Positions 5,572 to 52,898 of a stretch of DNA of 64,000 nucleotides are shown here, in pieces. Below the pieces are notes generated by a model. That model did not search any database, had not been told where the DNA came from, and saw nothing but the letters and a program-made list of their open reading frames with translations. How positions within the stretch are numbered: the stretch's first letter is position 1; the number at the start of each line of letters is the position of its first letter. The translations under genes were made by a program, and so were the position numbers. Source of the DNA: an uncultured Bdellovibrio sp. (lineage in GTDB: Bacteria > Bdellovibrionota > Bdellovibrionia > Bdellovibrionales > Bdellovibrionaceae); assembly GCA_963932905.1 (NCBI GenBank), contig CAWVRN010000019.1, positions 1 through 64,000 on the forward strand, given 5' to 3'.

Positions 5572-5768
5572 ACTCTAAGAACATGGATGTTTTTAGAGTG
5601 CCGGGGAGGGTGAGAAAGAGATCGATAGCCATGGATGGTCAAGAGTCGCAAAAAAGTTTTCTCGCAGGAAACAAAGAAATAAAAGCAACATCAAGGATTG
5701 ATGCTGATTGAATTCTAAAAAAGAGTCTTTAGTGCAGGATGCACAAGATTCTCCGACTCAAACTCCCC
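5572..5768 (+). ncRNA. Putative structured RNA (sRNA or flgJ leader) with several CsrA-type GGA hairpin loops
   Basis: Hairpins ACA-TGGA-TGT (5572-5599), GCCA-TGGA-TGGT (5628-5639), CATCAA-GGA-TTGATG (5689-5703), GTGCA-GGA-TGCAC (5732-5744); long-range pairs GGGGAG/CTCCCC and GAGTCG/CGACTC. Confidence 0.5.
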
Positions 5769-5789
5769 TCTTTCTTCTTTTTAAAAATT

Positions 5790-6458
5790 ATGATCAAAGT
5801 GCAAAAGGGACTTCCATTAAATGAGCCCGCGACAACCGAAAAGGTAAAAACCCAGTTTCGGGAAGTGTCGGATATGTACGAAAAGCATTTCCTTCGTGAA
5901 TTAATGAAATCAATGCGATCTAGCGTTCCAGAAAGTGGACTTGTCAAAGTCAACGGTGCTGAAAAGATCTTTCGCGAACAATTAGATAATGAATATGTAG
6001 AAAAGTGGGGCGAGAAAGGCGGCATCGGCATTTCCGACATGATATACAAAGACCTTGTCGACAAGTTTGGCGAACGCTACGGGCTTAAAGAACATCAAGA
6101 TAGACCGACAGGGCCCTTGAACCTGGGCGAGAAAGATACGCTGAACGTGAAGCGAAATTTCGATAAATCAAATCAGAAGTTGGAATTCCAATTCGACAGC
6201 CTTAAGAAAGATCAAGCCGGCCCGGTTGAAGCCGTTAGTCCTTGGTCGGGCGTATTAAGCAAGAAAGTGCAGCTAAGCGCGGATGAATATTTCTTAGAAG
6301 TGAATCACGACAATGGATTAACAAGCCAAATGAAGTTCAAAGGCTTAGCCCAACCGTTGAAAGTGAATGATCGCTTGGAAACTGGTGATAAGATAGGCAT
6401 CTTGAGTCAAGACACTAACGAGTTCTTTTGGAATCTGAAAAACCAAGCCGTTAAATAA
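5790..6458 (+). CDS. flgJ: FlgJ-like rod-binding protein with a degenerate M23-like C-terminal domain
   Basis: YEKHFLRELMKSMRSSV...FREQLD...GGIGISDMIY rod-binding motif; start moved from 5739 to ATG 5790 because the extension overlaps the hairpin region. Confidence 0.8.
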   Translation: MIKVQKGLPLNEPATTEKVKTQFREVSDMYEKHFLRELMKSMRSSVPESGLVKVNGAEKIFREQLDNEYVEKWGEKGGIGISDMIYKDLVDKFGERYGLKEHQDRPTGPLNLGEKDTLNVKRNFDKSNQKLEFQFDSLKKDQAGPVEAVSPWSGVLSKKVQLSADEYFLEVNHDNGLTSQMKFKGLAQPLKVNDRLETGDKIGILSQDTNEFFWNLKNQAVK

Positions 6459-6497: not shown

Positions 6498-7781
6498 ATG
6501 CCAACGGCGACGGCCTGTTCAAAATCAATTTTTTTTTTCTTTATCTGGGTTTTGGCTTTCAGTTTCGATTGTTTTGCTGAATTACCGGCACCTCGATTTG
6601 AAGCGTATCGAGTGTTGGGAAATCAAAAGAAAAAAGTAGAAGCGTTTTCCGGAGCCGCCAAGTGGAGCTGGCAAAATGTGGGTGTCGGTGCACAGGCTTT
6701 AAAAGCTCGCGCTGTATTCACTATACCTGAAGCATTAAGCAATGCTACGATCGAAGTTGCCAACCCATCGGCATCCATAAAAACAAAAGACAAAAAACTT
6801 CAAATAACTACCAGCGATTTGGTTACAAAAGTTAATTTCAACAGAAGTGCTACTGATATTATTCAGATTGAATTTCACATGATTGTACCTAAAGGTGGCG
6901 TTTTTGATGAAGGTTGTGAGGCATTAGGAATTCAACTTCAATTCAGCGAAAGTGAATTGCCATTTTACCTTGGGGCTCGCTGTCAGAAAACTGCAAATGC
7001 ATTTCAATTACAAATTAGTTTTCCGTCGGAAGCCGATGTTGATAAATCATCTATCTTTGATAGCCAGGGTAAAGGCGAAAGCTGGAGAGTTTACGAACTA
7101 GGTAATTTGGATGCGGCACAAGGTGAGCTAGCTAAAATCACATTAAAATTCAAAGATAAAAATTATGATTTAGGTGTCAGTTCTAATAAGAAATCAGAAG
7201 TCAAAAAGGGCGCTGCTGAAGCGAAATTTGCTGTGGGTGTTGGCTATGATTCACTAAAGTTTAAAAGTCCTGTGACTAGTGCCGCTGATTCAAAGCCTGT
7301 ATTTTTCTTGAAAGGCTTGCCGTATAAATTATTTTGGAGAATTGGTTTAGGTATAGACTTGGCAACGGCGGTTGGGTTAAGTCAGAACGAGAATTCGATT
7401 TCCTATCTGCAAATTGTTCCTTATGGTTATTTAAGATTGATTGAATCAAAATCTATGATTCTTGAAGGTCGTGGGTACTTTTCTATTTCATCGCAAACTC
7501 ATTCGGCGTCTGGTGGTGGTTATCAATACAATCGAGCCGGTGTGGGATTTCTATCAGGGTTTCGTTTGTCACCAAATTGGAAGATGATGATAGAGGCACG
7601 CACAGATTCGTTGGGATCCACAAAATTTAAAAGTCACTTTTTCGCAGATCTGCATATTTTGCGAACAAATCGTCTTTCTTGGGGATTCGGAGTTCAATCA
7701 CAAAATTTAACAGTGAATGAAACGACAACGGAACAACATCAATTTAGTCATACGCTATTTTATGGGTTGGTGGTTTATTGA
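6498..7781 (+). CDS. Hypothetical secreted protein with a probable C-terminal outer-membrane beta-barrel (paralog of next gene)
   Basis: Signal peptide; alternating amphipathic strands in the C-terminal half; terminal Tyr; shared GKGES[WY]RVYEL block. Confidence 0.7.
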   Translation: MPTATACSKSIFFFFIWVLAFSFDCFAELPAPRFEAYRVLGNQKKKVEAFSGAAKWSWQNVGVGAQALKARAVFTIPEALSNATIEVANPSASIKTKDKKLQITTSDLVTKVNFNRSATDIIQIEFHMIVPKGGVFDEGCEALGIQLQFSESELPFYLGARCQKTANAFQLQISFPSEADVDKSSIFDSQGKGESWRVYELGNLDAAQGELAKITLKFKDKNYDLGVSSNKKSEVKKGAAEAKFAVGVGYDSLKFKSPVTSAADSKPVFFLKGLPYKLFWRIGLGIDLATAVGLSQNENSISYLQIVPYGYLRLIESKSMILEGRGYFSISSQTHSASGGGYQYNRAGVGFLSGFRLSPNWKMMIEARTDSLGSTKFKSHFFADLHILRTNRLSWGFGVQSQNLTVNETTTEQHQFSHTLFYGLVVY

Positions 7782-9049
7782 TGCTGACTAGGTTCCTTTT
7801 TTCTTTTTTACTTTTTAGTACACTTTTATTCGCCCAGGTGAATACGGCGTCCTTTCGGATCAGTGAAAAGCGAGCCGAAAGTTGGACACCGATAAGTATG
7901 CGTTCTAAAGCTGTCTATCGCTGGGTAACAAATAAAGAAGGTGCTCGTGAAATACGTTGGAGTGTAATCGTAGAAACTCCGTGGGCTTTGGACGCCAGTG
8001 CCATTTCGACGACGACGGCGAACGCCACTGTTCGCGCCAAAGGAAATCGTTTTCTATTGGAAACTAGCTCAATGGAAACTATCGTAAGTTTGCCGGAAGG
8101 GCGTCAGTTGAAGTTGCTATGGCGATCTCAATCACCGATGCTGATAGATGAAAATTGCCAAAAAAGTTCTTTAGCATTTCTACCAGAGGCCACCGAAAAA
8201 ATGGCAGCAAAAACACCATTCTATATAGGTGTGAGCTGTGTTCAAAAGAATGAACAAGTAACTTTGCATTTAAGTTTTCCTTACGATGTGGAATTAGCTC
8301 GCGCTTCGCTTTTTGAGAGTATCGGCAAGGGCGAAAGCTATCGTGTCTACGAGCTGAAGAAAATTACAGCAGCAAAAGCCGCGTTGGGACAGTTTGTTTT
8401 TTCTTACAAAGATAGAAATTTTAACTACAGTTTGTTTTCTCAACGTGGCGAAACTAATGACAATAAGATTCCTAAATCTAGATTTACTTTTGCAGCTGGT
8501 GGCGGCAGTATGAGCCTAAAAACAACGACAGCTACCTACAAAGATACAAAGCCATTTGCCGTATTGGCTTTACGTCCGCAGACCGTTCTTAGCCAGTTTG
8601 CATTGGGAATAAATTTCGAAAGTTCAATTGGCAGTGCCGATTCATCCAATGTTAATAGTTTGTCTTACTTTCAAGTAAGCAGTTATGTCACTTATCGCTG
8701 GAATGCCCTTTCTTTTTGGGAAATTCAGCCAAGATTTTATTATGTGGTTTCTAATCAAAGTTCTGGTTCAGGAATTGGTTATCAAACAGGTCAATTTGGT
8801 GCGGGACTTTTGAACGCGTGGAAATTGACTGATCGTTTGTCATTTATTGTCGAAGCGATGACAGAAGCCATCAGTTCGCCGGTGATAACTGAGCATAGCT
8901 TTATAGAGATAAGTCTGTTCTATCGCGACGAAGGTTTGGAGTCAGGCTGGACTTTTGCGAATCAAATACAAAGCTATACGGTTAGTGATTCATTAAAGAA
9001 CGTTCGGAAGTTCGATCAGTCTTTTGTCGTTTTGAAACGGTCCTTTTAA
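7778..9049 (+). CDS. Hypothetical secreted protein with a probable C-terminal outer-membrane beta-barrel (paralog of previous gene)
   Basis: Signal peptide; terminal Phe; FESIGKGESYRVYEL; 4-nt overlap with the previous gene. Confidence 0.7.
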   Translation: MMLTRFLFSFLLFSTLLFAQVNTASFRISEKRAESWTPISMRSKAVYRWVTNKEGAREIRWSVIVETPWALDASAISTTTANATVRAKGNRFLLETSSMETIVSLPEGRQLKLLWRSQSPMLIDENCQKSSLAFLPEATEKMAAKTPFYIGVSCVQKNEQVTLHLSFPYDVELARASLFESIGKGESYRVYELKKITAAKAALGQFVFSYKDRNFNYSLFSQRGETNDNKIPKSRFTFAAGGGSMSLKTTTATYKDTKPFAVLALRPQTVLSQFALGINFESSIGSADSSNVNSLSYFQVSSYVTYRWNALSFWEIQPRFYYVVSNQSSGSGIGYQTGQFGAGLLNAWKLTDRLSFIVEAMTEAISSPVITEHSFIEISLFYRDEGLESGWTFANQIQSYTVSDSLKNVRKFDQSFVVLKRSF

Positions 9050-9168
9050 GCATAAAAGAATTGTCTCAATTTAGGTCGTGCCAATGGTTTTATTTTTTAT
9101 ATCAGATACCGATATAATACATACTTTATAACTAAATAGGAACTTGCGCCTAGTTTAGATAGAATGGT

Positions 9169-12100
9169 TTGAGGAACGTGGGCTCACCGGGGGAAAATTT
9201 GCGGCCAAATTGGTTTCGTTTTATTTTTATAAAACATAAAGCTGTTGTCGCAACCGTATTTTTATCACTGCTTCTTACTATTCAATTTCAAAACTGCGCT
9301 CAAAGTGGAGCGACCTACGTCAACAACGGACAAACTCAAGCCTCTCCTTTCGCAGATAAAAAAGTTGTTCTAAATTCAAAGAGTTTTCAAGATTCATCCC
9401 TAGAATCAAACGATCAAGCGCAAGATGCAGCTGGTAGCGCGACCAATGACTCATCTATTGAAAAGCCCAAATTGAAATCTAGTGTTCGTCTTTTAGCGAA
9501 AGTGAATAACGTTTGTGCGCAGTCTTGGTGTTCAAATAATCAAAATAGAAGTGCTATAGTTTGCCAAGCGTATCATCAAGGACCTCGCAAAAGCCTAGAA
9601 CGAAGTTTTCAAATTTACGAAGTTCGCAATCCAGGTGAATTGAATGAAGATCAGCTTCAAGCGTGGGTTAGCAAAAGTCCTGCTGATCAACATTGTCTAA
9701 AAGGTATTTCTGAATTGCGCATGTACTCTCAGAAAGCAGCTTTCAATGACACCAATTATTCAACCCAAAAACCGGCTTTGGATTTAATTAATTTTGAAGC
9801 GGCACAGACTTATTTTCCTGTTTCTAGTTTAGGTACAGTAAAAGTCGGCGTGATTGATTCGGGTGTTGCGGCGGATACAGATCTAGGAAATGTCGCTCAA
9901 CGTGTAAATGTTAGTTCGTGGAATGCTACGGCGACTCCGCTATTTCTGGGTGGCGATCAAACTAAACCGGCCAATTTCCATGGTACGTTCGTAGCTGGTA
10001 TTATTGGGGCCACTCGAAGTAATTCTAATGGCATTGTCGGTATTGCACCGAACACTTCTATATACGCTTATGGTGTTGGTAACAGTTTAGGTCAAATGAC
10101 TAATTTGGAAATCGCCAACGCGATTTCAGATGCTGTCGTCGATCAAATGGATGTTGTGAATATGTCGTTTGGTAATTCCGACGGGTACTATAGCGATGAT
10201 CCGATGATTGCCGACGGCCTTGTAGATGGCTATAATGCCAATATTCTTTTTGTTGTGGCAGCGGGTAATAGCAGCGCGAACTTAGATACGAATCCTTCCT
10301 ATCCAGCTCAGTATTCGTTCACCATGCAAAACGTGATTACCGTAGCTGCTTCTGATAACTATGGAAGTTTAGCTTCTTTTTCAAATCGCAGTAATACATA
10401 CGTGAACATCATGGCTCCGGGGGTACAGATCATTTCTATATACCCAAGCTACCTATCTCATAGCACGGATCGTTTTGATGGAACTTCATTTGCGGCTCCG
10501 ATGGTGACGGGCGCTGCGGCTTTAGCTATCGGTTATTATCGCAAAAAAAATATGACTCTGGACGTGGGAAATGTAAGGAAGTTAATTACTTTTGACGGTG
10601 CTAAACTGCGATCTGACTTAAATCCTTATATTAAAAGTGGTGCTTTCTTAGACTTAGAACAACTAGGTAAAGCAATTCAAACGGCCTCTGCAGCTCAGCC
10701 TTTGGCTATTTCACAAGCGCGAGGTGTGGATGGTTCAGGAAATCCGACACTAGAACTGACCATCGCTTACGATTCTAGTAAGTTCGCAAATGTGGCAGCA
10801 GGATCAAAAATTGGTATCTTTGATTTATCGTCTGGTTGCAATTATTCGGCGCCATGTTTAATTCAAAGTGTAACATGGCCACCAAGTTCTGCTGTATGTA
10901 GCGGGAACAATTGCACATTTAAAGTGACTTTGAGTCGTAGCCAAGTGATCACACTGATGCCTTCAAAAGATGATGCCAATTTAAAATTGCCACTATCAGT
11001 AGCTATTTATCACGTGATCGATGGCAAAAGTGTGTACGCTGTCGATGCGGCATCCAGCATCAACGTGCGCGAAGTTGCCGGTAGCACAGGTGAGGCATTA
11101 ACGGGCGCTGTTACCAATGTGCGAATGGATATGCAATTCTTCTACGTTCAAGGTTGGACATGTTTACCAGGATCTGAGAAGGCCATACCAGTAGGAATAG
11201 TGGATAGCGGTGGTAATGCCGTTGTTGCCGATTACGCTTATGATTATCCGTTTATGGTGCCACATAGTACACCGATTGATAGTGCGGGTGATTTGATGTG
11301 GCAGTCTAATGTAGCCGGAGATACGTACACTGACGGCAAACCTCATACACGTGCCTTGATCGCATCGGGTATTGTAGCGTCGCAAACTTCGAAAAGTCGT
11401 TTCCCTGCGGGTCTAGAGGCCAATCCTCAAATGGTAAATATTTGTAAAACCCTTACAGCGGCTCACGGTTTTGAATTGATGGTCCCACTAAGTACCATTC
11501 GTAATTCGTCGCTGTCGGGTAAAACCTTTAAAATTGTTGCGAGTGATTCATCCGATTTAGCTTTAAAGGATGCTCTTGGAAATGATGTTTTTGAGTTTCC
11601 AGAGGTCGTTGATAAAGCGTCAGAGAATCAATTCACAATTACTCGTGACGATGTAAATTATGAATTGACCGGTAAACTGTGTTCAGGATCGCCATCACCT
11701 GTTGAAGTAGAAGTCAGCTTTATGAGTTACAATTTCGTTTGGGCGCTAACGAATGCTCGCCCAGATTCGATTGGAAATGGTGCGGGTTTAGTTTCAGATA
11801 CCAGTTTAACAGCAACTACCCAATATCCTTTGCCAGTCGAAACTGTACAACCAACAACGTCAACGGATATGACTTTAAAAATTACGAAAGATACGTTGAC
11901 GACAACCGATACTGATCCGTTCACACTAGCTTACAAAAATTACGCACAATATCCACCAAATGCGGCTGTTGGCGGTCCTTCTGCTGGTGGCGGTACGCCT
12001 GATAGTTTGATTGCGGCATTCGTTAGTAATGTCAATTCGTACAATAAATTTGTACGCGTAGGGACTGGTGAATCAATTCGCTATTATCAATCTCTTAAAA

Positions 12101-12669
12101 GTATTGCTGCTGGACCTGGCTGGGCAGAGAAAGCCGCTGCCTACAACACAGCTCGTTCGGATATTTTGGTGCCTACAACGAATACATTTACAAATCCGAT
12201 CTATTGGGATTACTACGATGTAGGGGAACCGTTTTCGACAAATTTAGTTGGTTATGATTTTAACTGGCATTCTAAAGAGGTCGCAAAATATTTGAAAACA
12301 ACTTATCAAATTACTTCGGCTCTTCGCGAAGTAAAAAAATTCGAAACACCTTTATCTAAAGAAACAGGTATCCTTGGTCACGGGCAACTAGCTATAAATT
12401 GGTCTGGCTCGTGTGCTTCTGGATATCAGCATGATTTATCGAGTTTAAAAATTGAGAACTATAGTAAATATTCTCCATACTATGGAACAGGTGCGAATGG
12501 TTTCTGGTTAACTAGCCAACAGCCAAAACAGTACCAAGCCATCGCCGTGGCTGAAGCAATGAAGAAATTGCCAATTACATTAAGATTCTTTCAGGACGGA
12601 AAACTTGTTTTACATCTTGAATCAGATTCTAGTTCTAATTTTAACCAGGTAAATTACAATTTCAGATAG
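9169..12669 (+). CDS. Subtilisin-family (S8) serine protease, probable lipoprotein, with a long unassigned C-terminal region
   Basis: Triad motifs VGVIDSG, HGTFVAG, GTSFAAP; oxyanion AAGN; hydrophobic N-terminus ending QFQNC; exact start uncertain. Confidence 0.9.
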   Translation: MRNVGSPGENLRPNWFRFIFIKHKAVVATVFLSLLLTIQFQNCAQSGATYVNNGQTQASPFADKKVVLNSKSFQDSSLESNDQAQDAAGSATNDSSIEKPKLKSSVRLLAKVNNVCAQSWCSNNQNRSAIVCQAYHQGPRKSLERSFQIYEVRNPGELNEDQLQAWVSKSPADQHCLKGISELRMYSQKAAFNDTNYSTQKPALDLINFEAAQTYFPVSSLGTVKVGVIDSGVAADTDLGNVAQRVNVSSWNATATPLFLGGDQTKPANFHGTFVAGIIGATRSNSNGIVGIAPNTSIYAYGVGNSLGQMTNLEIANAISDAVVDQMDVVNMSFGNSDGYYSDDPMIADGLVDGYNANILFVVAAGNSSANLDTNPSYPAQYSFTMQNVITVAASDNYGSLASFSNRSNTYVNIMAPGVQIISIYPSYLSHSTDRFDGTSFAAPMVTGAAALAIGYYRKKNMTLDVGNVRKLITFDGAKLRSDLNPYIKSGAFLDLEQLGKAIQTASAAQPLAISQARGVDGSGNPTLELTIAYDSSKFANVAAGSKIGIFDLSSGCNYSAPCLIQSVTWPPSSAVCSGNNCTFKVTLSRSQVITLMPSKDDANLKLPLSVAIYHVIDGKSVYAVDAASSINVREVAGSTGEALTGAVTNVRMDMQFFYVQGWTCLPGSEKAIPVGIVDSGGNAVVADYAYDYPFMVPHSTPIDSAGDLMWQSNVAGDTYTDGKPHTRALIASGIVASQTSKSRFPAGLEANPQMVNICKTLTAAHGFELMVPLSTIRNSSLSGKTFKIVASDSSDLALKDALGNDVFEFPEVVDKASENQFTITRDDVNYELTGKLCSGSPSPVEVEVSFMSYNFVWALTNARPDSIGNGAGLVSDTSLTATTQYPLPVETVQPTTSTDMTLKITKDTLTTTDTDPFTLAYKNYAQYPPNAAVGGPSAGGGTPDSLIAAFVSNVNSYNKFVRVGTGESIRYYQSLKSIAAGPGWAEKAAAYNTARSDILVPTTNTFTNPIYWDYYDVGEPFSTNLVGYDFNWHSKEVAKYLKTTYQITSALREVKKFETPLSKETGILGHGQLAINWSGSCASGYQHDLSSLKIENYSKYSPYYGTGANGFWLTSQQPKQYQAIAVAEAMKKLPITLRFFQDGKLVLHLESDSSSNFNQVNYNFR

Positions 12670-12686
12670 ATAGAAAGGTACGTTGA

Positions 12687-15101
12687 GTGTTTATTGGGGT
12701 GGTTCGTTTTTATTTATTAGCTTTCATCATTGCTTGCTTGGCGGGTTGTACCGGAAAAGTAAGTACGGAATCTAGCGTGCAAAACGCGGTCGAAGCGATG
12801 GCACAGCAGAGTTCCGTTACGTTAATTTCTAATTCGACCCAATCTCAAAATAAATGTGAAACAGGGAATAAAATTGTTGTTCAAGTAGCTTTGTCGACAG
12901 TTGCTAAATTTTATTGCCGTGATAAATCAAAATTAATGGATTCAGTTAAACTAGGTCCAGTGTGTGATGGTGGCGTAACGATCAAGAATTTGACTGTAAA
13001 TCGAGACGTAAAAGATTGTCATGAACTAACGGTGTGCGGTCGATCGCACAGTTCGGCGGTTGATATCACGAAGCGTATCGACGGTACGACAGTTCAACGG
13101 TTAACGTTTGAAAATTTGCCTTGGGGTTGTGAAGGGCACATCGAAGCATCTTCGGATCCAAAATTTGAGAGCGGAGAAATACAAAGTATTTCGATGCAAA
13201 TTCTGCCTCCGTCATGCCCGTTCTGTGAAGCGTTCAACGGAGTTAGCTGTAATCAGTGCAGTACGGCTAGTAGTGGCGAAACTATGTTTGTGGCCGGACA
13301 AATTATTCCTAAAACCTGCACTGGTAATTGTGCTCAATGTAAATACCCACCGACGGGAAGTCCTTCTGCCAGTTTTGTCTCCAGCAGTGAAATGGTGGCA
13401 CATGCCGGTATTCGTCCATTCTATACTTCAGGTAATGCGATTTGTGGTCAATTGTGTACACAGATTCAACAAATTCGCGTTTGCAATAACGGCAAATGGG
13501 TACCTGGTGATGATACTGTTCTGCATACTCAGTGTCAGGAGCCAGCGCCTTCAAGTTGCATGACGGGAAATAGCGTAGGGTTTTTTAAGGGTCTAACCAG
13601 AAAATTCGGTTTGAATTCAGGTTTGCAAACGATGGCAGCTGGTGGCGACGGTGTTACGTGTGCGCAATGTTCGGCGGGGTCGTGCGCGACATGTACGACC
13701 GCTGGAGGATCACAAGGCTACAAGTTATATACTCAGACATCGGTTCCTAACGGATCATCATGTGACTCTGTTAGCCAGTGTCAAACCTGTGTTGACAACT
13801 TATTCCAAGGCAATCCCGCTTATAAATACGGATCATGTTCTGTGCTTGCGGCGTCATGTACGCAGCGTTTGCTAAACTCACCAGTGGCATCTGGGTCTAA
13901 ACAAACGTTCTATAACGGTGGTAGTTGTGACCCGATTGTTTTGACGTGTGCTAATGGATCTTGGAAAGATTCAAATAATGCCGCTGTAACACAAACCACT
14001 GCGGATAGTTATTCCGATCAGTGTGTACAGTCGTCAGATTGTGTAACTAAAGGTGGAATTTCGATTTTAAATAACACCAATCAATATGTGTTCGATACTA
14101 ATTTAGTGGATTCGACAGATAATTGTTATTCAACGAATCACTTTCGGTACATAGGGTGTGCAAACGGTGCTGTGTCACCTAGTGATCCGGGGACTTCATT
14201 TAAATACAAAGAATGTAAAACTAAAACTTGCGTCGATCCACGTGATCCTGCAAAAACAATTAATGCAGGTGTTGTGGTTTCCTATTGGGCTGTTGGCGAA
14301 GCGACCTGTTCAAGCCTACCAGATCCAGCGACGTATTGTAATAACAACAAAGTTACCTTTACCTGTGCACCAACGGGTGGGGCTGCGGTTATTTCCCCAG
14401 CGAATGCAACTGGCCTTGCGGGCTATACCTACTCTGCCTGCAAAGTTCCACCGTCGTGCAGTGCTTGTGTGGTTAACAAAACAGACGCTAACAATATCAA
14501 TGTTTCAATCGGTAGTTCAACGATGCTATTTAAAAATAAACAGTCAGATTTATGTCAAAGCGTTGGAAAGTCGTTTACCTGTCAATCATCGGGCAATAGT
14601 TCTCCTAAATTAGTGGATTCAACTGGGGCCGGTGAAAAACATGAAGACTATCCTTACTTGAATTGTAGTCCAACTGGCGGCGGAGATGAAGGCAGCTTGG
14701 GTGGAACCGGCGGTGGTAACGGAAATGATAATGGTCCTGGTTCTGCAATTAAGAAACGATTTGGAGCAACGGATGGCAGTGGTGGAGCTGGTTTAGGTTG
14801 TGTGGATGCCGTTTCATGTGCCCTACAATTTTCGGGAGCTTCGCTTCCGACGAAAACTAATTTTACTCCATGTGTTCTTCCGTGGCCGTCTCGCGTAAGC
14901 GAAATTGAATTCTATGGAACAATCGTAGCGTTCAGTAGTCGTCGCGCTACGATCGCTTCCGGTACAAATGATACCGTCTGTGTGACGAAACCAGATTTAT
15001 GTTCTAACCATCGTCAATCACGTACGTGCCAATACCCAACATGGACAGGCGCGGAGGAATTTAAATATCCAAACTGTGTCGAGAAAGCGAGTTGCCCATG
15101 A
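12687..15101 (+). CDS. Cysteine-rich repeat lipoprotein
   Basis: Lipobox LAGC; repeated modules like G..F/Y....C.....C.NG.W/F.G...Y..C; late CVLPW motif. Confidence 0.75.
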   Translation: MFIGVVRFYLLAFIIACLAGCTGKVSTESSVQNAVEAMAQQSSVTLISNSTQSQNKCETGNKIVVQVALSTVAKFYCRDKSKLMDSVKLGPVCDGGVTIKNLTVNRDVKDCHELTVCGRSHSSAVDITKRIDGTTVQRLTFENLPWGCEGHIEASSDPKFESGEIQSISMQILPPSCPFCEAFNGVSCNQCSTASSGETMFVAGQIIPKTCTGNCAQCKYPPTGSPSASFVSSSEMVAHAGIRPFYTSGNAICGQLCTQIQQIRVCNNGKWVPGDDTVLHTQCQEPAPSSCMTGNSVGFFKGLTRKFGLNSGLQTMAAGGDGVTCAQCSAGSCATCTTAGGSQGYKLYTQTSVPNGSSCDSVSQCQTCVDNLFQGNPAYKYGSCSVLAASCTQRLLNSPVASGSKQTFYNGGSCDPIVLTCANGSWKDSNNAAVTQTTADSYSDQCVQSSDCVTKGGISILNNTNQYVFDTNLVDSTDNCYSTNHFRYIGCANGAVSPSDPGTSFKYKECKTKTCVDPRDPAKTINAGVVVSYWAVGEATCSSLPDPATYCNNNKVTFTCAPTGGAAVISPANATGLAGYTYSACKVPPSCSACVVNKTDANNINVSIGSSTMLFKNKQSDLCQSVGKSFTCQSSGNSSPKLVDSTGAGEKHEDYPYLNCSPTGGGDEGSLGGTGGGNGNDNGPGSAIKKRFGATDGSGGAGLGCVDAVSCALQFSGASLPTKTNFTPCVLPWPSRVSEIEFYGTIVAFSSRRATIASGTNDTVCVTKPDLCSNHRQSRTCQYPTWTGAEEFKYPNCVEKASCP

Positions 15102-17809
15102 AGTTTTTTGGCTTACTTGCTTTAGTCATAGTTAATATGATGGTAAATTTGGGTTGTTCGGAACAAGTGAATACACCTAAATCTGAATCCGCATTGCAAA
15201 TGGAAATGACGTACACGAAAGCGTGCTCGGATGGAAAATGTCCGTGCGATTCGCCGTTAGGTCCCATTGTCGATGGCGGCACGGCTTTAGCGTATGATAC
15301 AAATCAAGTCGCTTGCGGCGCTACCTGTGAAACTCGTGCCGTAACGTTAGTTTGTAAAAATGGAAAATTTGACCGGGATACAAAACCATTGTCGTTTTCT
15401 TGCCAGGTATCAGCGTGTAAGGCATGTACGGTAGGAAATAATCAAGTTCCGCATGGTTTTACTGTCCAAATGTTCAATTCAAACTCAGTTGCCTGCGGAA
15501 AAAGCTGTGATGACAACAAGCGCGCTTTGGTTTGTAAGGATGGAAAACTGCAAGGCAGTTTAGCGGGGCCATCGGCGGATGGTAAAGACGGCGTGTATTC
15601 TTCAGCCAGCTGTTTACCTCAAACATGCAACTGTTCAATTCCTGACGGCGGCAGCATGACAGCCGGCGGGGAAATGAAGTTCTATAAATCCAGCACCGGT
15701 ACATGCGATATTCCGTGTGATGATTCAAAAAATATGGTGAAGCGTACCTGCGCGCCAGTCAACGGTTCTAGCACAACGTTTGCGTTTAGTGGGGATACAA
15801 GTTTTTCTAAATCAAGTTGTACAGAACGTCCGACGAATTTATGTGGTTGTACTCTTCCAGATACAAATAAAACCGCGTTAGGTCACGGAAAATCTAAAGA
15901 TATTTTTGGTGCCTCAGCTCCCTACAGTTGCAATACTTGCGATAATATTAAAATTACGGCTTATTGCGATAGTGGGACATTATATGACAAACCATCTACG
16001 GATTCGACTCGAGTTGTATTAAGTCCTTCGCAGTTAAATTCACATAAATCATTATCGTGTGATCCGGGTTTAACTCCAGACTGTACGATTAACAATATTT
16101 GTGTGGCTGATAAAACAAGTAAAACACTGTATGGTAAAACGCCATTAACATGCGCGGATAACCCCAGTGATTCACAGGCTCTATTTTCTTGTGCAAACAA
16201 AGCATTGCTTCAAAACGGTGTGGCCTATAATGCAACGACTGATATTTACAAAAACTCTTGGCAAGTGAGTGCGCCTTCGAATTCATGCGTGGGTTGTGCA
16301 TTACCTTGGGGTGGATCGGTCGGAGTTGGCTCAACGGTTTCTATGTATAAGAGTTCTGGCAATTCATCGAATTCGTGTGGTACTGGATGCAAACAAATAC
16401 AGATGAAATGTTTGGCTGATGGAAGTTTTGATTCCGGCGACGCCAGTGTAAATTTAGATTATAAAAACAATAAATCAAACTACACTCAAACATGTAACAA
16501 CACCTGCTCACAAGAGGGCGGTGGTGCACCTCCAAGATTCTGTCTTCTACCATGGCAAAATAGTTTTGTTTCCGCTGATGCTTTAATTCCGATGTGGAAA
16601 AAGAAGACGGTGTACTATGGAGATAGTTGCCAGAACTACTTTCGACTAGGTCGTTGTATGCTAAGTACCGGTACGTTCGATGCTGGCTTTCAATATATAT
16701 ACAAAAGTTGTACGGAGCTTCCTTTTCAAGGTGTTCGTATCGATAACGTAAGCCCGAAATTTGTAACATCAGCCGGCGGTACCATCACGTTAACAGGAGC
16801 GGGTTTTGCGGCAGGTATGCAAGTCGCAATTGGTAAAACTACATGTTCAAATGTTTCTGTGTCTAGTGCCACCCAATTGACATGTACGGCTCCTGCAAAT
16901 TCATCATTAGATAGCTACGATGTATTAGTGACTGTGGGTACTAAAAAAGCCATCAGTCCAAGTGGATTGTCGTACTATGGTGGCCAATGTACGGGCGGGC
17001 CGGGACAAACTGTTTTCAAATACACTGGCAGCAATCAAACATTCACTGTCCCTGCAGGTTGTAAATCGATAACGATCACAGCTTGGGGTGCCGGTGGTGG
17101 TGGCCGACAAATTTCAGTATCTGGAGGATTTATCGGTCAGGTCGGGGGCGCTGGTGGTTTTGCAAAAGGAACCCTCGCAGTCACTCCTGGTGCATCGTAC
17201 ACAGTGGTTGTCGGTGGCGGTGGTTATGGCGGTTACTTCAGTGGATCTAGTGGTGGCGGTTACGCAGGTGTATTCTCGTCTACATCCATAGCAGCTGCTA
17301 ATGCGGTTATCATAGCCGGTGGTGGTGGCGGTGCCGGTGATCCAACTGGATGCAATAAAGGTGGTACCGGCGGCGAAGGCGGTGGTGCTACGGGTGGAAC
17401 GCATGGAACATGCTCAGGAACTGGTGGTTCGCAAAGTGCCGGCGGCACAGGTGGCGCTTCAGCAAAAGCGGGGGAATCACTGAAAGGTGCTTCTATTGGA
17501 TCTTCGGTAGCTGGGTACGCTGGTGCGGGCACTGGAAATTCATATACGTCCGGTGGTGCCGGTGGTGGTGGATACTTTGGTGGTGGCGCTGGATCAGAAG
17601 TCACAGGCCTAGCCGGTTCAGGTGGTGGAGGCAGCGGTTATCTGTCACCATCCATTACGAATGGCACAACTACAACAGGCAACGGTCGTATGCCTCCGCA
17701 AACTAGCGACTCTAAATATCAATTCGGCATTGGTATGGGCGGAAATGACCCTACTGGTGGAACGGGATCGTCTACCGGTGGAAACGGTATGATCGTTATA
17801 AGTTACTAG
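15092..17809 (+). CDS. Cysteine-rich repeat lipoprotein with an IPT/TIG domain and a C-terminal glycine-rich domain
   Basis: Lipobox NLGC; same Cys module; VSPK...GGTITLTGAGF...LTCTAP (IPT/TIG); FKYTGSNQTFTVPAG...AWGAGGGG...GGNGMIVISY (glycine-rich domain). Confidence 0.8.
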   Translation: MPMKFFGLLALVIVNMMVNLGCSEQVNTPKSESALQMEMTYTKACSDGKCPCDSPLGPIVDGGTALAYDTNQVACGATCETRAVTLVCKNGKFDRDTKPLSFSCQVSACKACTVGNNQVPHGFTVQMFNSNSVACGKSCDDNKRALVCKDGKLQGSLAGPSADGKDGVYSSASCLPQTCNCSIPDGGSMTAGGEMKFYKSSTGTCDIPCDDSKNMVKRTCAPVNGSSTTFAFSGDTSFSKSSCTERPTNLCGCTLPDTNKTALGHGKSKDIFGASAPYSCNTCDNIKITAYCDSGTLYDKPSTDSTRVVLSPSQLNSHKSLSCDPGLTPDCTINNICVADKTSKTLYGKTPLTCADNPSDSQALFSCANKALLQNGVAYNATTDIYKNSWQVSAPSNSCVGCALPWGGSVGVGSTVSMYKSSGNSSNSCGTGCKQIQMKCLADGSFDSGDASVNLDYKNNKSNYTQTCNNTCSQEGGGAPPRFCLLPWQNSFVSADALIPMWKKKTVYYGDSCQNYFRLGRCMLSTGTFDAGFQYIYKSCTELPFQGVRIDNVSPKFVTSAGGTITLTGAGFAAGMQVAIGKTTCSNVSVSSATQLTCTAPANSSLDSYDVLVTVGTKKAISPSGLSYYGGQCTGGPGQTVFKYTGSNQTFTVPAGCKSITITAWGAGGGGRQISVSGGFIGQVGGAGGFAKGTLAVTPGASYTVVVGGGGYGGYFSGSSGGGYAGVFSSTSIAAANAVIIAGGGGGAGDPTGCNKGGTGGEGGGATGGTHGTCSGTGGSQSAGGTGGASAKAGESLKGASIGSSVAGYAGAGTGNSYTSGGAGGGGYFGGGAGSEVTGLAGSGGGGSGYLSPSITNGTTTTGNGRMPPQTSDSKYQFGIGMGGNDPTGGTGSSTGGNGMIVISY

Positions 17810-17822
17810 TGTTCGTCGATAA

Positions 17823-18980
17823 CTATTTTAGTTTTATTTCACCCAGTTGCGAGATCTCAAACAGTACTTTCCGTTTTGGATTTTTGTTTAAATCCAATTT
17901 AATGTCCGGAATTTCGATGTTTCCTCGAGTCGAGAAAATCACGAGTTTGCCTTCGGCTGGGGCCGGATTTCCATATTGATTGTAAAACGTGATTTCTGCT
18001 TCGTATGTTCCCGCAATGACCTTATCGGCTTGCCAGATCTCGGCTCCAGGACCTCGTCTACTATCTAAGACTATTTTTCCTGGATAATTTAGGAATTCTT
18101 TGTTTTTGAATGTAAATTTTTTACCGTTAGGGTCTTTAATAACTAAATCTAAATCATGTTCATTGGTAAACCAGTTTAAAACTATAGCCAGGAACGATCC
18201 TTTTTGTTCTAAGGTCTGCAGCTTAGCTTCCAATTCTTTGTTTTTTTGATCTAGTATTTTAGTTTTTTCTGATTCTGAGATGTATTCCTTTTCGAAATTT
18301 TTCTCTTTTGGCTTTTCTTTGTCCTTGTCTTTTTCTTTTTCGATTTTATCAATGGCCGCGACTTTTCTTGCTAGTTCTTCTTTCATTTTAGCAATTTCTT
18401 CGTCTTTAGCTTTTATTTCGTCTTTCTTTTTTAGTAGCTCATTTTCATTCTTTTTTAATTTTTCTTCCGCGACTACTTTTTCTCTAGTTAGTTCCGCCGT
18501 GCTTTTGTTTTCATTTTGGATGGAAGCTATAGAACGATTCTTTTCTTGGTTTTCAGTTTCCAATCGTTTCAGTTCTTCCCTGGATTTTGTGTTTTCAGAA
18601 ACCTGCAGAGCCAAATCCTCTTTTAATTTTTTAGATTCGTCTTCCATAGCAGTAAATTTAGTTTTCAGGTCTGCGGCTTCCGCAATCAGTTTCGCTTGGT
18701 CGGCCAGTTGGGCCGTTAACGCTGCGATTTGGGCTTGGTAGTCTGGTAGATTAACTTTAGGATCCTTGACCTGATCTTGTGCAAATTTTTGTTGAATCGA
18801 CTCTTTCATCTTTTTAGTCGCTTCAGGGTCTTGCATGGCGTACAACATGACGAAAAGACCAAAAAGAAGTGTCATCATATCCGCATAGGATACGAGCCAG
18901 CGTTCATCGATATGTTCTTCGTGATCGCCTTCGATATATTTCTTTTTGTAAATGATCTTAACGTTTTTGTCTTTAGCCAT
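17823..18980 (-). CDS. MotB-like protein: MotB transmembrane helix + coiled coil + YfaP/DUF2135-like domain, no OmpA-like domain
   Basis: WLVSYADMMTLLFGLFVMLYA with the conserved Asp; long K/E-rich heptad region; C-terminal LNWFTNEHDLDLVIKDPNG...LDSRRGPGAE...GTYEAEITFY. Confidence 0.8.
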   Translation of the reverse strand: MAKDKNVKIIYKKKYIEGDHEEHIDERWLVSYADMMTLLFGLFVMLYAMQDPEATKKMKESIQQKFAQDQVKDPKVNLPDYQAQIAALTAQLADQAKLIAEAADLKTKFTAMEDESKKLKEDLALQVSENTKSREELKRLETENQEKNRSIASIQNENKSTAELTREKVVAEEKLKKNENELLKKKDEIKAKDEEIAKMKEELARKVAAIDKIEKEKDKDKEKPKEKNFEKEYISESEKTKILDQKNKELEAKLQTLEQKGSFLAIVLNWFTNEHDLDLVIKDPNGKKFTFKNKEFLNYPGKIVLDSRRGPGAEIWQADKVIAGTYEAEITFYNQYGNPAPAEGKLVIFSTRGNIEIPDIKLDLNKNPKRKVLFEISQLGEIKLK

Positions 18981-19820
18981 CTAAGCGACCGTTTTGGCGT
19001 TTGTCTGTTGTCTTTGATCTCTGATTTCCGTTAAGTAATCTTTGATTTTCTCTTTGAAGGCCATACGTTCACCAATTGGGATGTGACCAATTGTTTTTTC
19101 GACCAGGAATGCGAATGTACATTGATTGTTCATTGCACGAACAGAGTCCGCGATCATTTTGCGCTGCTTAACTTCTTCGTAGGCGATTTTATTTGCGTAG
19201 TCAGATAGTGGTAAGAAAATTAAGTTTGCTACGGCGATACCCCAGAAAGTAGCGACTAGGGCGATGGCCATTGCCGGACCGATAGTTTCAGCGCCGCCAG
19301 ATCCTAAACGAGTCATCATCACGATCATACCCGTCGATGCACCCAATAGACCGAACGCAGGTGGAAATTTTGCGATCGCATTTAGGATTTTAGCATCGTT
19401 TTGGTATTCGCTTTTTATTTGTTCAATACGGGTATCAAGAATTTCTTCAAGTTCATGATCGTCGAATTGATTTTTCGAAATCATTTTCACAGATTCAACT
19501 AGGAATGGATGATAATGAGTGTTCATAAAAAACTGTTCAATACGATTTTCTTTTAGGAATGAATACGATCTGAAAATTTGTTCACCAATGACGTAGCTAT
19601 CGACTTTACGTTTAAGGATAACTCCAGAAATAAAAAAGTTAACAAAACCAAGGAGCTTTTTCGCGGGAAACGCAATCAGTGCGGCCGCTACGGTACCACC
19701 AATAACTAAAATTAAAGCATGGGGATCCAGAAAGAGTTTAGGATTTGGAGACGATGAAAGTACACCGAACCAGATAACACACGACGCAGCTAAAAAACCC
19801 AACACAGTTGAAATATTCAT
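18981..19820 (-). CDS. MotA/PomA-family proton-channel protein
   Basis: LILVIGGTVAA, PAFGLLGASTGMIVMM, IGPAMAIALVATFWGIAVANLIFLP; abuts the motB-like gene. Confidence 0.88.
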   Translation of the reverse strand: MNISTVLGFLAASCVIWFGVLSSSPNPKLFLDPHALILVIGGTVAAALIAFPAKKLLGFVNFFISGVILKRKVDSYVIGEQIFRSYSFLKENRIEQFFMNTHYHPFLVESVKMISKNQFDDHELEEILDTRIEQIKSEYQNDAKILNAIAKFPPAFGLLGASTGMIVMMTRLGSGGAETIGPAMAIALVATFWGIAVANLIFLPLSDYANKIAYEEVKQRKMIADSVRAMNNQCTFAFLVEKTIGHIPIGERMAFKEKIKDYLTEIRDQRQQTNAKTVA

Positions 19821-19854: not shown

Positions 19855-20101
19855 GTCTAGATTCGCTGCAGGACGTTCCCGTCTAGTCGGGGAGTCTAGT
19901 GCCGTCGGCTCTTGCGGTGGTCAACCAAAGTCGAGCGTCAAAATTTTATAGGGTGGCCAAAAATATTTTGGTCCTGATTCACCGAACACCGTCGAAATTC
20001 CGTCATAGATGAAAGGTTATGTGGTCTGGATGGCTCCGTGGGCTTGAGGTTCGTCCAGATATTCTGGTCTTTAGAATGGAAAGTAGGAAAAAAAGTCCAG
20101 A

Positions 20102-20117
20102 TGGCACTTTGATTGCT
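20102..20117 (+). promoter_or_regulatory. sigma54 (-24/-12) promoter of the fliL operon
   Basis: TGGCACTTTGATTGCT, a near-perfect TGGCAC-N5-TTGC. Confidence 0.8.
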
Positions 20118-20168
20118 GCTAAAGGTTTTAAGGGGAAAAGTGTCATTTCTTCGTTAGGGAGGATTGAA

Positions 20169-20720
20169 GTGGCTGAAGACAAAGCAGCAGCGGCAGCACC
20201 GGCACCAGCGGCAGCGCCAGCATCGGGTGGATCTAAGACGAACATTATTTATGTCGTACTTATAGTTATTAATATGTTTTTCTTAGCCGGCGTAGGATGG
20301 ATGATCTACCAAGGAAAGAAAAAGGACAATGCCGAGCCAAAGATCGAGCACGTTATTAAAGGCGAGCACGATACTCAAGAGGCTGAGCACAAGGAAGAGA
20401 AGCAATTCATTGGGAAAGTAGTTCCACTGGAAACCTTTATCGTGAACCTAGCGGGCTCTAAAGGCCGCAAAGTTGCGAAAGTGATGATGGAATTAGAACT
20501 GAAGGACAATGAAGGTAAAAACGTAGCAGACGAAATCGACAAGCGTAAAGCGCAAGTCCGCGACATAATTATCATTATCTTATCTTCGAAAAAGTATGAG
20601 GAAGTTTCTAATAAAGAAGGAATTGAAAACTTGAAAGGTGAGATCAAAGACACCATCAATTCATTCCTGACGAATGGAAAAATCTCGAACGTGTTCTTCA
20701 CTGAGTTTATTTACAACTAA
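20169..20720 (+). CDS. fliL: Flagellar basal body-associated protein FliL
   Basis: Single TM helix, PLETFIVNL, QVRDIII, VFFTEF; GTG 20169 follows GGGAGG and lies downstream of the sigma54 site. Confidence 0.9.
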   Translation: MAEDKAAAAAPAPAAAPASGGSKTNIIYVVLIVINMFFLAGVGWMIYQGKKKDNAEPKIEHVIKGEHDTQEAEHKEEKQFIGKVVPLETFIVNLAGSKGRKVAKVMMELELKDNEGKNVADEIDKRKAQVRDIIIIILSSKKYEEVSNKEGIENLKGEIKDTINSFLTNGKISNVFFTEFIYN

Positions 20721-52268: not shown

Positions 52269-52898
52269 GTGCTAACCGAAAAAATTTTTGCAGTAGCTCA
52301 CGTCATCGACCAGGTTCTTTTGTGGATTCTTGTATTTTTAAGTTTTTTAAGTCTAGGTATGATCTTAGAGAGATTTTTTAATTTGCGTAAAGTTTCGAAA
52401 GAATCAAACCGCGTTCGTATTCAAATTAAAAATTCACTTCAAAATCATCAAACTGAATTTTTCGAAGATCTAGCTCGCGATCCTTTGTCATTTGAAGGTC
52501 GCATGGCTAATTACGCTCTGAAGCACATCAAAGAAAGTGGTTCAAAAGGTCTGGAAGAATTTTTCAATACAAACATCTTAACGATGAAACCGGAACTGGA
52601 TCGTTTCTTGGGATTCTTGGCAACGGTAGGATCGAATGCGCCTTATTTGGGTCTACTGGGTACGGTTCTTGGTATCATGAAAGCGTTTAATGATTTGGCT
52701 CAATCGCCAGAAGCAGGTCAGCAAACAGTGATGGCGGGTATCTCGTTAGCTTTAGTTGCGACTGCTGCGGGTCTATTTGTTGCGATTCCAGCAGTTATCG
52801 GTTTCAACTTTTTTGGTAAGCAAGTTAAAGGCATCGTTCAAAGTTTAGAATCAGTTAAAGAACTTGGTCTAAGTTACGCTAAGAAAAAAGGTTTATAA
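52269..52898 (+). CDS. ExbB/TolQ family proton-channel protein
   Basis: LATVGSNAPYLGLLGTVLGIMKAF, ALVATAAGLFVAIPA. Confidence 0.92.
   Translation: MLTEKIFAVAHVIDQVLLWILVFLSFLSLGMILERFFNLRKVSKESNRVRIQIKNSLQNHQTEFFEDLARDPLSFEGRMANYALKHIKESGSKGLEEFFNTNILTMKPELDRFLGFLATVGSNAPYLGLLGTVLGIMKAFNDLAQSPEAGQQTVMAGISLALVATAAGLFVAIPAVIGFNFFGKQVKGIVQSLESVKELGLSYAKKKGL

Follow-up and report, generated by a model that had tools for sequence, protein, structure and literature searches.

The stretch of DNA analysed here, called the window throughout, comprises 64,000 nt of contig CAWVRN010000019.1 from an uncultured Bdellovibrio sp. (GCA_963932905.1; the host genome is coded G000, with G for genomes, L for loci, C for contigs, f for families and g for genera). 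Between a flgJ-like gene and fliL it carries a 13-kb block of seven genes, which encode two predicted outer-membrane barrel proteins, a subtilase, two Cys-rich lipoproteins and a pair related to the stator proteins MotA and MotB. An earlier note on this DNA had proposed that the block encodes a trans-envelope system with a non-canonical motor, and the seven open reading frames (ORFs) that it listed are all present in the ORF list and the Pfam scans. The block and its two borders are composed as follows.

5739..6458, plus strand: flgJ-like Rod-binding gene (Pfam); left border of the insertion site, outside the system
6498..7781, plus strand: barrel1, 427 aa, with signal peptide, two beta-sandwiches and a 10-strand barrel (AlphaFold, Foldseek, alignments)
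7778..9049, plus strand: barrel2, 423 aa, tandem paralogue of barrel1 (tblastn, tree)
9169..12669, plus strand: S8 subtilase, 1166 aa, putative lipoprotein (Pfam PF00082, orthologue alignment)
12687..15101, plus strand: Cys-rich lipoprotein 1 (cys1), 804 aa, 54 Cys, lipobox LAGC
15092..17809, plus strand: Cys-rich lipoprotein 2 (cys2), 905 aa when counted from TTG 15092, 47 Cys
17823..18980, minus strand: motB-like B subunit, 385 aa (Pfam MotB_plug, PDB and Atlas comparison)
18981..19820, minus strand: motA/PomA-type A subunit, 279 aa (Pfam PF01618, PDB, NCBIfam)
20019..20720, plus strand: fliL (Pfam); right border of the insertion site, outside the system

The genes are closely packed, with an overlap of 4 nt between barrel1 and barrel2, gaps of 119 nt between barrel2 and the subtilase and of 17 nt between the subtilase and cys1, and a convergent motB that lies 13 nt from the end of cys2 and abuts motA. 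These distances are those given before, but the 10-nt overlap formerly assigned to cys1 and cys2 has to be corrected. The junction reads TGCCCATGA (15090-15101), the C-P-stop of cys1 overlapping an ATG of cys2, and to judge from these letters the start codon of cys2 is most likely ATG 15098, which makes the overlap a classic ATGA of 4 nt. The same junction recurs in the distant loci L025, L026 and L043, where it is visible as an 'MPM' start of the longest ORF, a pattern which suggests that translational coupling of both Cys-rich lipoproteins is conserved.

Components of the block

The A subunit belongs to PF01618 (MotA_ExbB; 75.5 bits against a cut-off of 22.9), and its residues 1-256, which represent nearly the full length, align with solved flagellar MotA/PomA chains at E 9e-22 to 1e-14, all PDB matches lying between 9e-22 and 2e-6. 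In NCBIfam, the MotA, PomA and MotP models rank first (E about 5e-27; about 94 bits, far under their equivalog cut-offs of 237-394), TolQ and ExbB following in the same scan at E 7e-5 and 1e-3, respectively. The B subunit contains the MotB_plug domain (PF13677, 59.3 bits against a cut-off of 24) and a pore helix, YADMMTLL, which includes the catalytic Asp and aligns to solved MotB chains over residues 18-68 only. The plug is followed by about 195 residues of coiled coil, matching only SMC-, Rad50- and JetC-type coiled-coil models, and by a C-terminal domain (CTD) of about 125 residues (about 260-385), in which 27 columns are invariant among relatives (alignment A3). Pfam detected no OmpA-like peptidoglycan-binding domain on MotB, either over the whole protein at E<=0.01 or over residues 260-385 at E<=10, and the CTD gave zero Pfam matches even at E 10, PF09906 (DUF2135) included. 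In the ESM Atlas model of MotB, the CTD superposes on DUF2135/YfaP clusters with template-modelling (TM) scores of 0.78-0.87, a likeness on which the Pfam hidden Markov model (HMM) is silent, and in structure the CTD would accordingly be a predicted DUF2135/YfaP-like beta-sandwich. In the motor that the earlier note called non-canonical, MotB has a coiled coil and a DUF2135-like CTD in place of the OmpA anchor.

Three motAB pairs are encoded in G000, namely that of the window, a paralogous pair on contig C1 (identity to the window pair over the full length 42% for MotA and 32% for MotB, the latter being built in the same way) and an E. coli-like pair on contig C2. The latter (L003, G000:C2:215407-217278) has a MotA_N domain and a 313-aa MotB for which no OmpA Pfam match was obtained at E<=0.01. 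Another gene of the MotA/ExbB/TolQ family lies in the window itself at 52494-52850 (PF01618, 114.6 bits), there being 13 such matches in the genome.

Given the near full-length alignment to flagellar chains, the NCBIfam ranking and a plug above its Pfam cut-off, the pair could be a special stator which drives a (probably sheathed) flagellum, its coiled coil being anchored to the barrel and not to peptidoglycan and the protease and lipoprotein genes being passengers. That Bdellovibrio and like organisms (BALOs) hold 1-4 motAB pairs per genome, according to passages of PMC11323537, would also fit. Nevertheless, this explanation is considered quite unlikely. The genome possesses an E. coli-like pair besides, and the charged rotor-contact (FliG-interface) motif of the MotA loop is not kept in the family, varying among the 13 members aligned, in a region where the alignment itself is uncertain. 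At the places aligned to ARREG...LE of the solved stators, the MotA of the window has K/E, while the canonical paralogue on contig C2 keeps the motif.

Neither barrel protein matched a family in Pfam or NCBIfam, and the description relies on models. The AlphaFold model of barrel1, built from a 15-sequence alignment (predicted local distance difference test, pLDDT, 81.7), comprises a signal helix, two beta-sandwiches (residues ~33-230) and ten long strands that would form the barrel (244-426), ending in an aromatic C-terminus. By Foldseek these strands resemble NspA, OpcA and Pla (E 4e-5 to 4e-4, probability 1.0), a likeness in fold only. The traits of small outer-membrane barrels are present, that is, the strands, a signal peptide and a C-terminal aromatic residue, the two proteins ending VVY and RSF. 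With an even number of strands both ends of a barrel are in the periplasm, and since ten were modelled, both sandwiches are most likely periplasmic. When the N-terminal half was modelled alone (pLDDT 93.3, predicted TM score 0.87), Foldseek found nothing in the PDB at E<=0.001; with VIA-align the highest Z was 7.4, and the matches at Z 5-6 were generic sandwiches of Ig-like, NEAT and VirB9-like type, none pointing to a specific fold. The second sandwich contains two Cys and a GKG(E) motif that are invariant in 18 sequences. As for barrel2, it is 26% identical to barrel1 (tblastn, E 3e-40), the b1 and b2 clades are each supported at 100 in the tree, and on this sequence evidence the duplication is older than the split from G007. 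The name twin barrels holds for a 10-strand C-terminal barrel and its paralogue, but about half of each protein consists of two predicted periplasmic beta-sandwich domains and not of barrel. A word-index protein search with barrel1 retrieved 8 proteins only, and profile searches of genomes were used instead.

The subtilase matches Peptidase_S8 (PF00082) with 153.9 bits, keeps the Asp-His-Ser triad (D230, H271, S440) and the oxyanion Asn (N367) in 9 of 9 orthologues and bears a conserved C-terminal extension of about 700 residues. Its signal peptide ends in FQNC (window 9169-9300). Over the 1.15 million ORF residues of G000, this tetrapeptide is confined to 21 ORFs, in each of which it closes a hydrophobic stretch at the N-terminus, and no other combination of three residues and Cys follows such a stretch as often. 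In three orthologues that are only distantly related, a classical lipobox takes its place. From this distribution and from the lipoboxes of the orthologues, the subtilase is probably a lipoprotein, and FQNC has the appearance of a variant lipobox or sorting signal specific to the lineage. For cys1, which has the conserved C-terminal end ...YPNCVEKASCP, no relatives were found in Pfam, NCBIfam or the Atlas. The second Cys-rich protein is built of about eight six-Cys repeats with a period of about 60 residues, followed by an IPT-like, Gly-rich C-terminal part found only in the two same-genus copies compared; its weak matches to CoaZ_rpt and Gly_rich_2 both lie under the cut-offs. A lipoprotein signal (signal peptide or lipobox) is present in 18 of 20 Cys-rich proteins that were listed for relatives, and many of the 20 share the end motif [YF]-P-x-C-x-E-x(2,3)-C-P. 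Family scans, models and alignments bear out the parts list drawn up from the first inspection, with a motor in the inner membrane, a long coiled coil in the periplasm, barrels in the outer membrane, lipoproteins and a protease with intact catalytic residues.

Such a set of parts also brings to mind a Slam-like, ion-driven export, where the barrel, perhaps as an oligomer, would move the three lipoproteins to the outer leaflet by means of the force of MotB. In each full module the barrel gene has lipoprotein genes for neighbours, lipoprotein signals are present on all three of the putative cargo proteins, and surface lipoproteins with dedicated barrels are known, e.g. the DUF560 transporters mentioned in passages of PMC9946355. 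However, only 10 strands were modelled and the nearest folds, NspA, OpcA and Pla, are non-transporting; the cargo would consist of disulfide-rich proteins of 800-1200 aa; and the minimal loci described below have no obvious cargo gene. Export of this kind is regarded as very unlikely.

Linkage and genomic setting

The distribution of the CTD and of the barrel was determined with profiles over a 401-genome sample of the phylum Bdellovibrionota. The CTD profile matched at 33 sites in 27 genomes and the barrel profile at 33 sites in 23 genomes, both being found in 21 genomes, and comparison of the two tables placed a barrel match on the same contig, at <=10 kb, at 25 of the 33 CTD sites. Independent occurrence of the motor genes and of the barrel, protease and Cys-repeat genes, which the earlier note had named as the outcome that would speak against a common system, is thus not the pattern observed; their linkage is conserved. 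The pairs come from the families f1, f2, f18, f23 and f25, although kinship among genomes inflates the pair counts. In five more genomes of the same genus, the barrel gene stands beside a paralogous motB in 5/5, and on contig C1 of G000 motA, motB and a barrel homologue of 435 aa follow one another with 4-nt overlaps. At this last locus (L024, G000:C1, 6380-8320 and 12678-13271), the three genes stand between a HAMP histidine kinase gene, which precedes them, and genes for a 209-aa product and an LpoB-like lipoprotein.

For a closer view, 31 loci were fetched and their ORFs labelled by profile. The subtilase and the two Cys-rich lipoproteins travel with the motor and barrel genes in at least 8 genomes of f1, f2 and f18 and in at least 4 gene orders. 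The arrangements that contain them are given below.

Window: full set; motAB, S8, two Cys and barrels
L013 (G007): full set; gene order as in the window
L026 (G239): full set; motA, motB, S8, Cys, Cys, barrel, all on one strand
L025 (G302): full set; barrel convergent
L022 (G025): full set; motAB and barrel facing Cys, Cys, S8
L028 (G044): full set; two parts divergent, one end beyond the fetched range
L029 (G170): full set; ends at the contig end
L015, L016 (G002, G005): partial; motAB, S8, two Cys, no adjacent barrel
L042 (G120): partial; S8, Cys, Cys, barrel, with motAB in the middle of another contig
L043 (G021): partial; barrel, Cys, Cys, S8 at a contig end, with motAB at another contig end

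Among the remaining loci, at least 12 are minimal, consisting of motA-motB-barrel alone, and five hold motAB alone. In a parallel variant (L027, L017, L035), motor and barrel are separated or flanked by large lipoproteins of other kinds that likewise contain Cys, and two of these give weak matches to Lcl_C (DUF1566). In L027 (G190:C1, 16070-19888), a 1272-aa fibre-like protein with a Peptidase_S74 intramolecular-chaperone domain is encoded directly upstream of motA. In L015 and L016, the flgJ-side site is occupied by a 1244-aa protein with RCC1 repeats and Big_13 (10255-13989), with no barrel; their subtilase and Cys-rich proteins are 25-32% identical to those of the window, and their motAB 69-80%. 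A 137-aa ORF close to the block of L013 (G007:C2, 15547-15960) has a weak match to an ADP-ribosyltransferase exoenzyme (E 6e-5), just under the Pfam cut-off.

The locus L022 (G025:C3, 8364-10479) differs in its motor, since TolQ is the only model matched by its A subunit (E 1e-3) and no plug is present in its B subunit; nevertheless, the coiled coil, the CTD, the barrel, the S8 protease and both Cys-rich lipoproteins are all kept. A gene with FHA and zinc-ribbon domains overlaps the start of this A subunit. Quick trees of motA, of the MotB CTD and of the barrel have four well-supported clades in common, and they disagree on L022, the motor of which groups with L039 and the barrel with L025 (support 100), a conflict indicating that the parts reassort. 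From the exchanged motor and the tree pattern together, shaft and head, barrel and lipoproteins are the constants of the system, which do not include a flagellar rotor.

A different explanation of the same map is that two uncoupled units have become neighbours, one of motAB and barrel, serving envelope maintenance or a Tol-like tether, and the other of the protease and two disulfide-rich lipoproteins, used for instance in prey degradation. The minimal loci, contig C1 included, are what such a scheme would lead one to expect, as are the locus of G120, in which the protease, Cys-rich and barrel genes lack motAB beside them, and the reassortment seen in L022. Against this, the barrel accompanies either half, namely motAB in the minimal loci and the lipoprotein genes in L042 and L043, which fits a shared adaptor; linkage of all parts outlasts at least 4 rearrangements over f1, f2 and f18; and 10 of the 10 genomes with the S8 and Cys-lipoprotein set encode a MotB of the CTD type somewhere. 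Two separate units are therefore judged unlikely.

In the window, the block is set in a flagellar cluster, with flgA/H/I and the Rod-binding gene upstream and fliL/M/N/O/P/Q/R downstream according to Pfam. Base composition is uniform throughout the 13 kb, and a promoter and terminator scan of the block gave matches no more numerous than expected from shuffled sequence. The position between flgJ and fliL, to which attention had been drawn at the outset, is real here but cannot be extended to the system, as the site is empty in four genomes of the same genus (G001, G004, G007, G009), where flgJ and fliM are separated by 768-1974 bp against 14,272 bp in G000. By this comparison of sequences, the position is a local insertion in part of one genus and no trait of the system. 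Flagellar association was found only in G000, G002 and G005, in the latter two between flgJ and the contig end. The neighbourhood does exist away from flagellar genes, most loci being non-flagellar; G007 has the seven genes on contig C2 and its flagellar cluster on C34, and the neighbours of L022 are peptidases and an FHA-domain gene.

For the special stator considered above, the location of the block, at flgJ-fliL in the window and next to flgJ in G002 and G005, would be a natural one. Yet this location is the local insertion just described, most loci lack flagellar neighbours, and the TolQ-like motor of L022 is found with the rest of the module intact. Furthermore, in genus g9 (26 mostly complete genomes of the same family), probably Bdellovibrio sensu stricto, the barrel is found in 0/26 genomes and the CTD gives one weak match. 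In favour of a stator, three motAB pairs contribute to swimming in B. bacteriovorus, as Morehouse is said to have reported in 2011. Orthology with these three characterised stators was considered and set aside, since g9 has no barrel and one weak CTD match.

Outside the phylum sample, the CTD profile was run against 1.84 billion representatives at 50% identity, which gave 1271 matches at E<=1e-3, 140 of them at E<=1e-30. A MotB-type N-terminus is present in 131 of the 150 top-scoring matches, and 15 of the 19 others are <=268 aa long and seemingly truncated N-terminally; the median linker is 154 residues. Ten clusters were looked up and four of them were named, three as 'flagellar motor protein MotB' and one as 'YfaP (DUF2135 family)'; with labels of this kind, where there are any, the family is easily overlooked. 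A single barrel peptide pattern matched 8 loci, all in metagenome-assembled genomes labelled Bdellovibrionales, Pseudobdellovibrionaceae or Bdellovibrio sp., a search too narrow for setting the taxonomic range. The literature search found no description of the MotB architecture or of the gene module, none of a fusion of a DUF2135-like domain to the MotB transmembrane helix, plug and coiled coil, and no work on DUF2135. In the main-text passages of PMC12505986, supplements excluded, plug and OmpA-like domain are treated as joint flagellar traits in the evolution of MotAB, and a plug-bearing B subunit without the OmpA-like domain is not mentioned.

Proposed mechanism and its weighing

Taking these observations together, the block is held with moderate confidence to be a conserved, unnamed module of the Bdellovibrionota for non-flagellar, ion-driven transmission of force to an outer-membrane lipoprotein platform. 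By homology, MotA and MotB would form an ion motor of the 5:2 type (MotA5:MotB2), its activation being gated by the plug. Ion flow would turn or pull the coiled-coil dimer of MotB, which would thus act as its own force transducer, and the DUF2135-like head would engage the periplasmic sandwiches of the barrel protein. A complex prediction of the MotB CTD with the barrel N-domains scored 0.29 against a mark of 0.32, in a run made without controls, and bears on binding in neither direction. The barrel, in turn, may hold or gate three outer-membrane lipoproteins, namely the S8 protease and the two disulfide-rich repeat proteins, and in this way inner-membrane energy might control their exposure, position or release, plausibly in adhesion, gliding or prey contact. 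No cytoplasmic partner is conserved and the remaining conserved members are all exported, so the work is most likely done at the outer membrane.

Beyond this, a more general proposal is advanced tentatively, the chances being somewhat against it, according to which the block would represent an undescribed class of trans-envelope machine of predatory-type bacteria. Here a stator-derived 5:2 motor would dock its rotating or pulling MotB shaft, by way of the DUF2135-like head, on a dedicated barrel and so mechanically actuate interchangeable surface lipoproteins, either the protease with the disulfide-rich repeats or Lcl_C/DUF1566 lectin-like proteins, so as to attach to surfaces or prey or to attack them, and the pair of shaft and barrel could be refitted to a TolQ-like motor.

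Several facts weigh against the transmission of force from motor to barrel. At 8 of the 33 CTD sites no barrel is near: three are in f6, where three genomes have motAB of the CTD type and zero barrel matches, one each is in G021 and G120 (barrel on another contig), one is in G240, and two are weak matches. In the same sense, L015 and L016 combine the motor with the protease and lipoproteins without an adjacent barrel, and in L042 the motor genes lie in the middle of another contig. MotB varies between 272 and 529 aa among the loci examined, which implies that a fixed periplasm-spanning length is not needed in every variant, and the DUF2135-like head could itself bind the cell wall. The pore of a 10-strand barrel is too narrow for folded lipoproteins, which makes display through the barrel unlikely; threading of the lipoproteins through it was dropped for the same reason. 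In G000, barrel1 starts 39 nt after flgJ, and with this spacing and the module inside the flagellar cluster in G000, G002 and G005, co-transcription with flagellar genes is possible. Finally, an A subunit of the MotA/PomA type and a plug-bearing B subunit are both described as flagellar traits in passages of PMC12505986.

The interest of the module derives from the present view of 5:2 ion motors as general engines of the outer membrane, acting in Ton, Tol, gliding, type IX secretion and Zorya. If the force transmission proposed here is correct, a flagellar-type stator would have kept its plug and done without a wall anchor, the B subunit becoming the transducer to a defined outer-membrane partner with changeable lipoproteins. 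The system would then offer a test bed for the activation of 5:2 motors without peptidoglycan binding and a first approach to the function of the DUF2135 domain. It would also be a candidate surface machine in a predatory lineage, the attachment and invasion machinery of which is poorly known.

Comparison with known systems

The nearest relatives of the motor itself are the MotAB/PomAB stators (the 'FIT' clade in passages of PMC12505986), with which it shares a PF01618 A subunit aligning to MotA/PomA and a B subunit with the Asp and the plug. It differs from them in having a coiled coil and a DUF2135-like head and no OmpA-like domain, in the apparently unconserved rotor motif and in its mostly non-flagellar loci. 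Compared with ExbBD-TonB and TolQRA, the A subunit of the window is MotA-like (5e-27 versus 7e-5 for TolQ), that of L022 being TolQ-like, and none of the seven window proteins matched a TonB/TolA transducer family in Pfam or NCBIfam. The CTD of MotB, in turn, is akin to DUF2135/YfaP (PF09906) by its TM scores in the Atlas, and one relative is named YfaP at source, although the Pfam HMM remains unmatched.

MotAB-type motors are also employed against phages, and a Zorya-like defence might be envisaged, with its variable cargo genes and a block inserted into a conserved cluster. ZorA bears a cytoplasmic tail on the A subunit, whereas here a long coiled coil is placed on the periplasmic B subunit, and no nuclease or helicase partner is present. 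Moreover, in PADLOC the MotA gave zero matches, MotB matched through its coiled coil only, and the sole matches at family level were those of the subtilase to generic subtilase and IetS models. Despite the precedent of MotAB homologues in defence, i.e. ZorAB (parts of PMC12204202 and PMC12505986), a defensive role is thought extremely improbable.

Other systems share the principle of a B subunit which carries force or an effector outward. In parts of PMC12204202, B-like proteins with a pore helix and a vWA domain, working with TolQ-like pentamers, are proposed to be direct force transducers to the outer membrane. They resemble the present MotB in that the B subunit bears a periplasmic effector domain; unlike them, the module has a DUF2135-like head, a motor that is mostly MotA/PomA-like with a plug, a barrel partner and a set of lipoproteins, and no vWA domain was found by Pfam in the seven window proteins. 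The shaft-type 5:2 motor is likewise the point of likeness with GldLM/PorLM. In these motors, the two-copy subunit spans the periplasm as a shaft toward an outer-membrane complex handling adhesins and proteases. Here the helix and plug are of the MotB type and the locus lacks the other parts of type IX secretion; no type IX or GldLM model was matched in the general Pfam and NCBIfam scans of the seven proteins, no dedicated search having been made. As to SiiAB of Salmonella SPI-4, the similarity is that of a MotAB-like pair tied to the handling of a surface adhesin, but SiiA contains a domain that binds peptidoglycan and cooperates with a secretion system of type I, both of which are absent at this locus. 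SiiAB is included among the systems listed in the passages of PMC12204202.

The Agl-Glt machinery of Myxococcus combines a motor with outer-membrane barrels in a platform that shields or exposes the Cys-rich surface lipoprotein adhesin CglB, as set out in parts of PMC9946355. It uses AglRQS with the TolA-like GltG/J where the present module has the coiled coil of MotB, and the S8 protease is a fixed member here. CglB attains the cell surface normally in the absence of GltABH. In common are a 5:2-type motor, a barrel platform, a Cys-rich lipoprotein and a predatory host and, as an analogy drawn from descriptions and not from compared sequences, the Agl-Glt platform may be the nearest functional counterpart of the module described.

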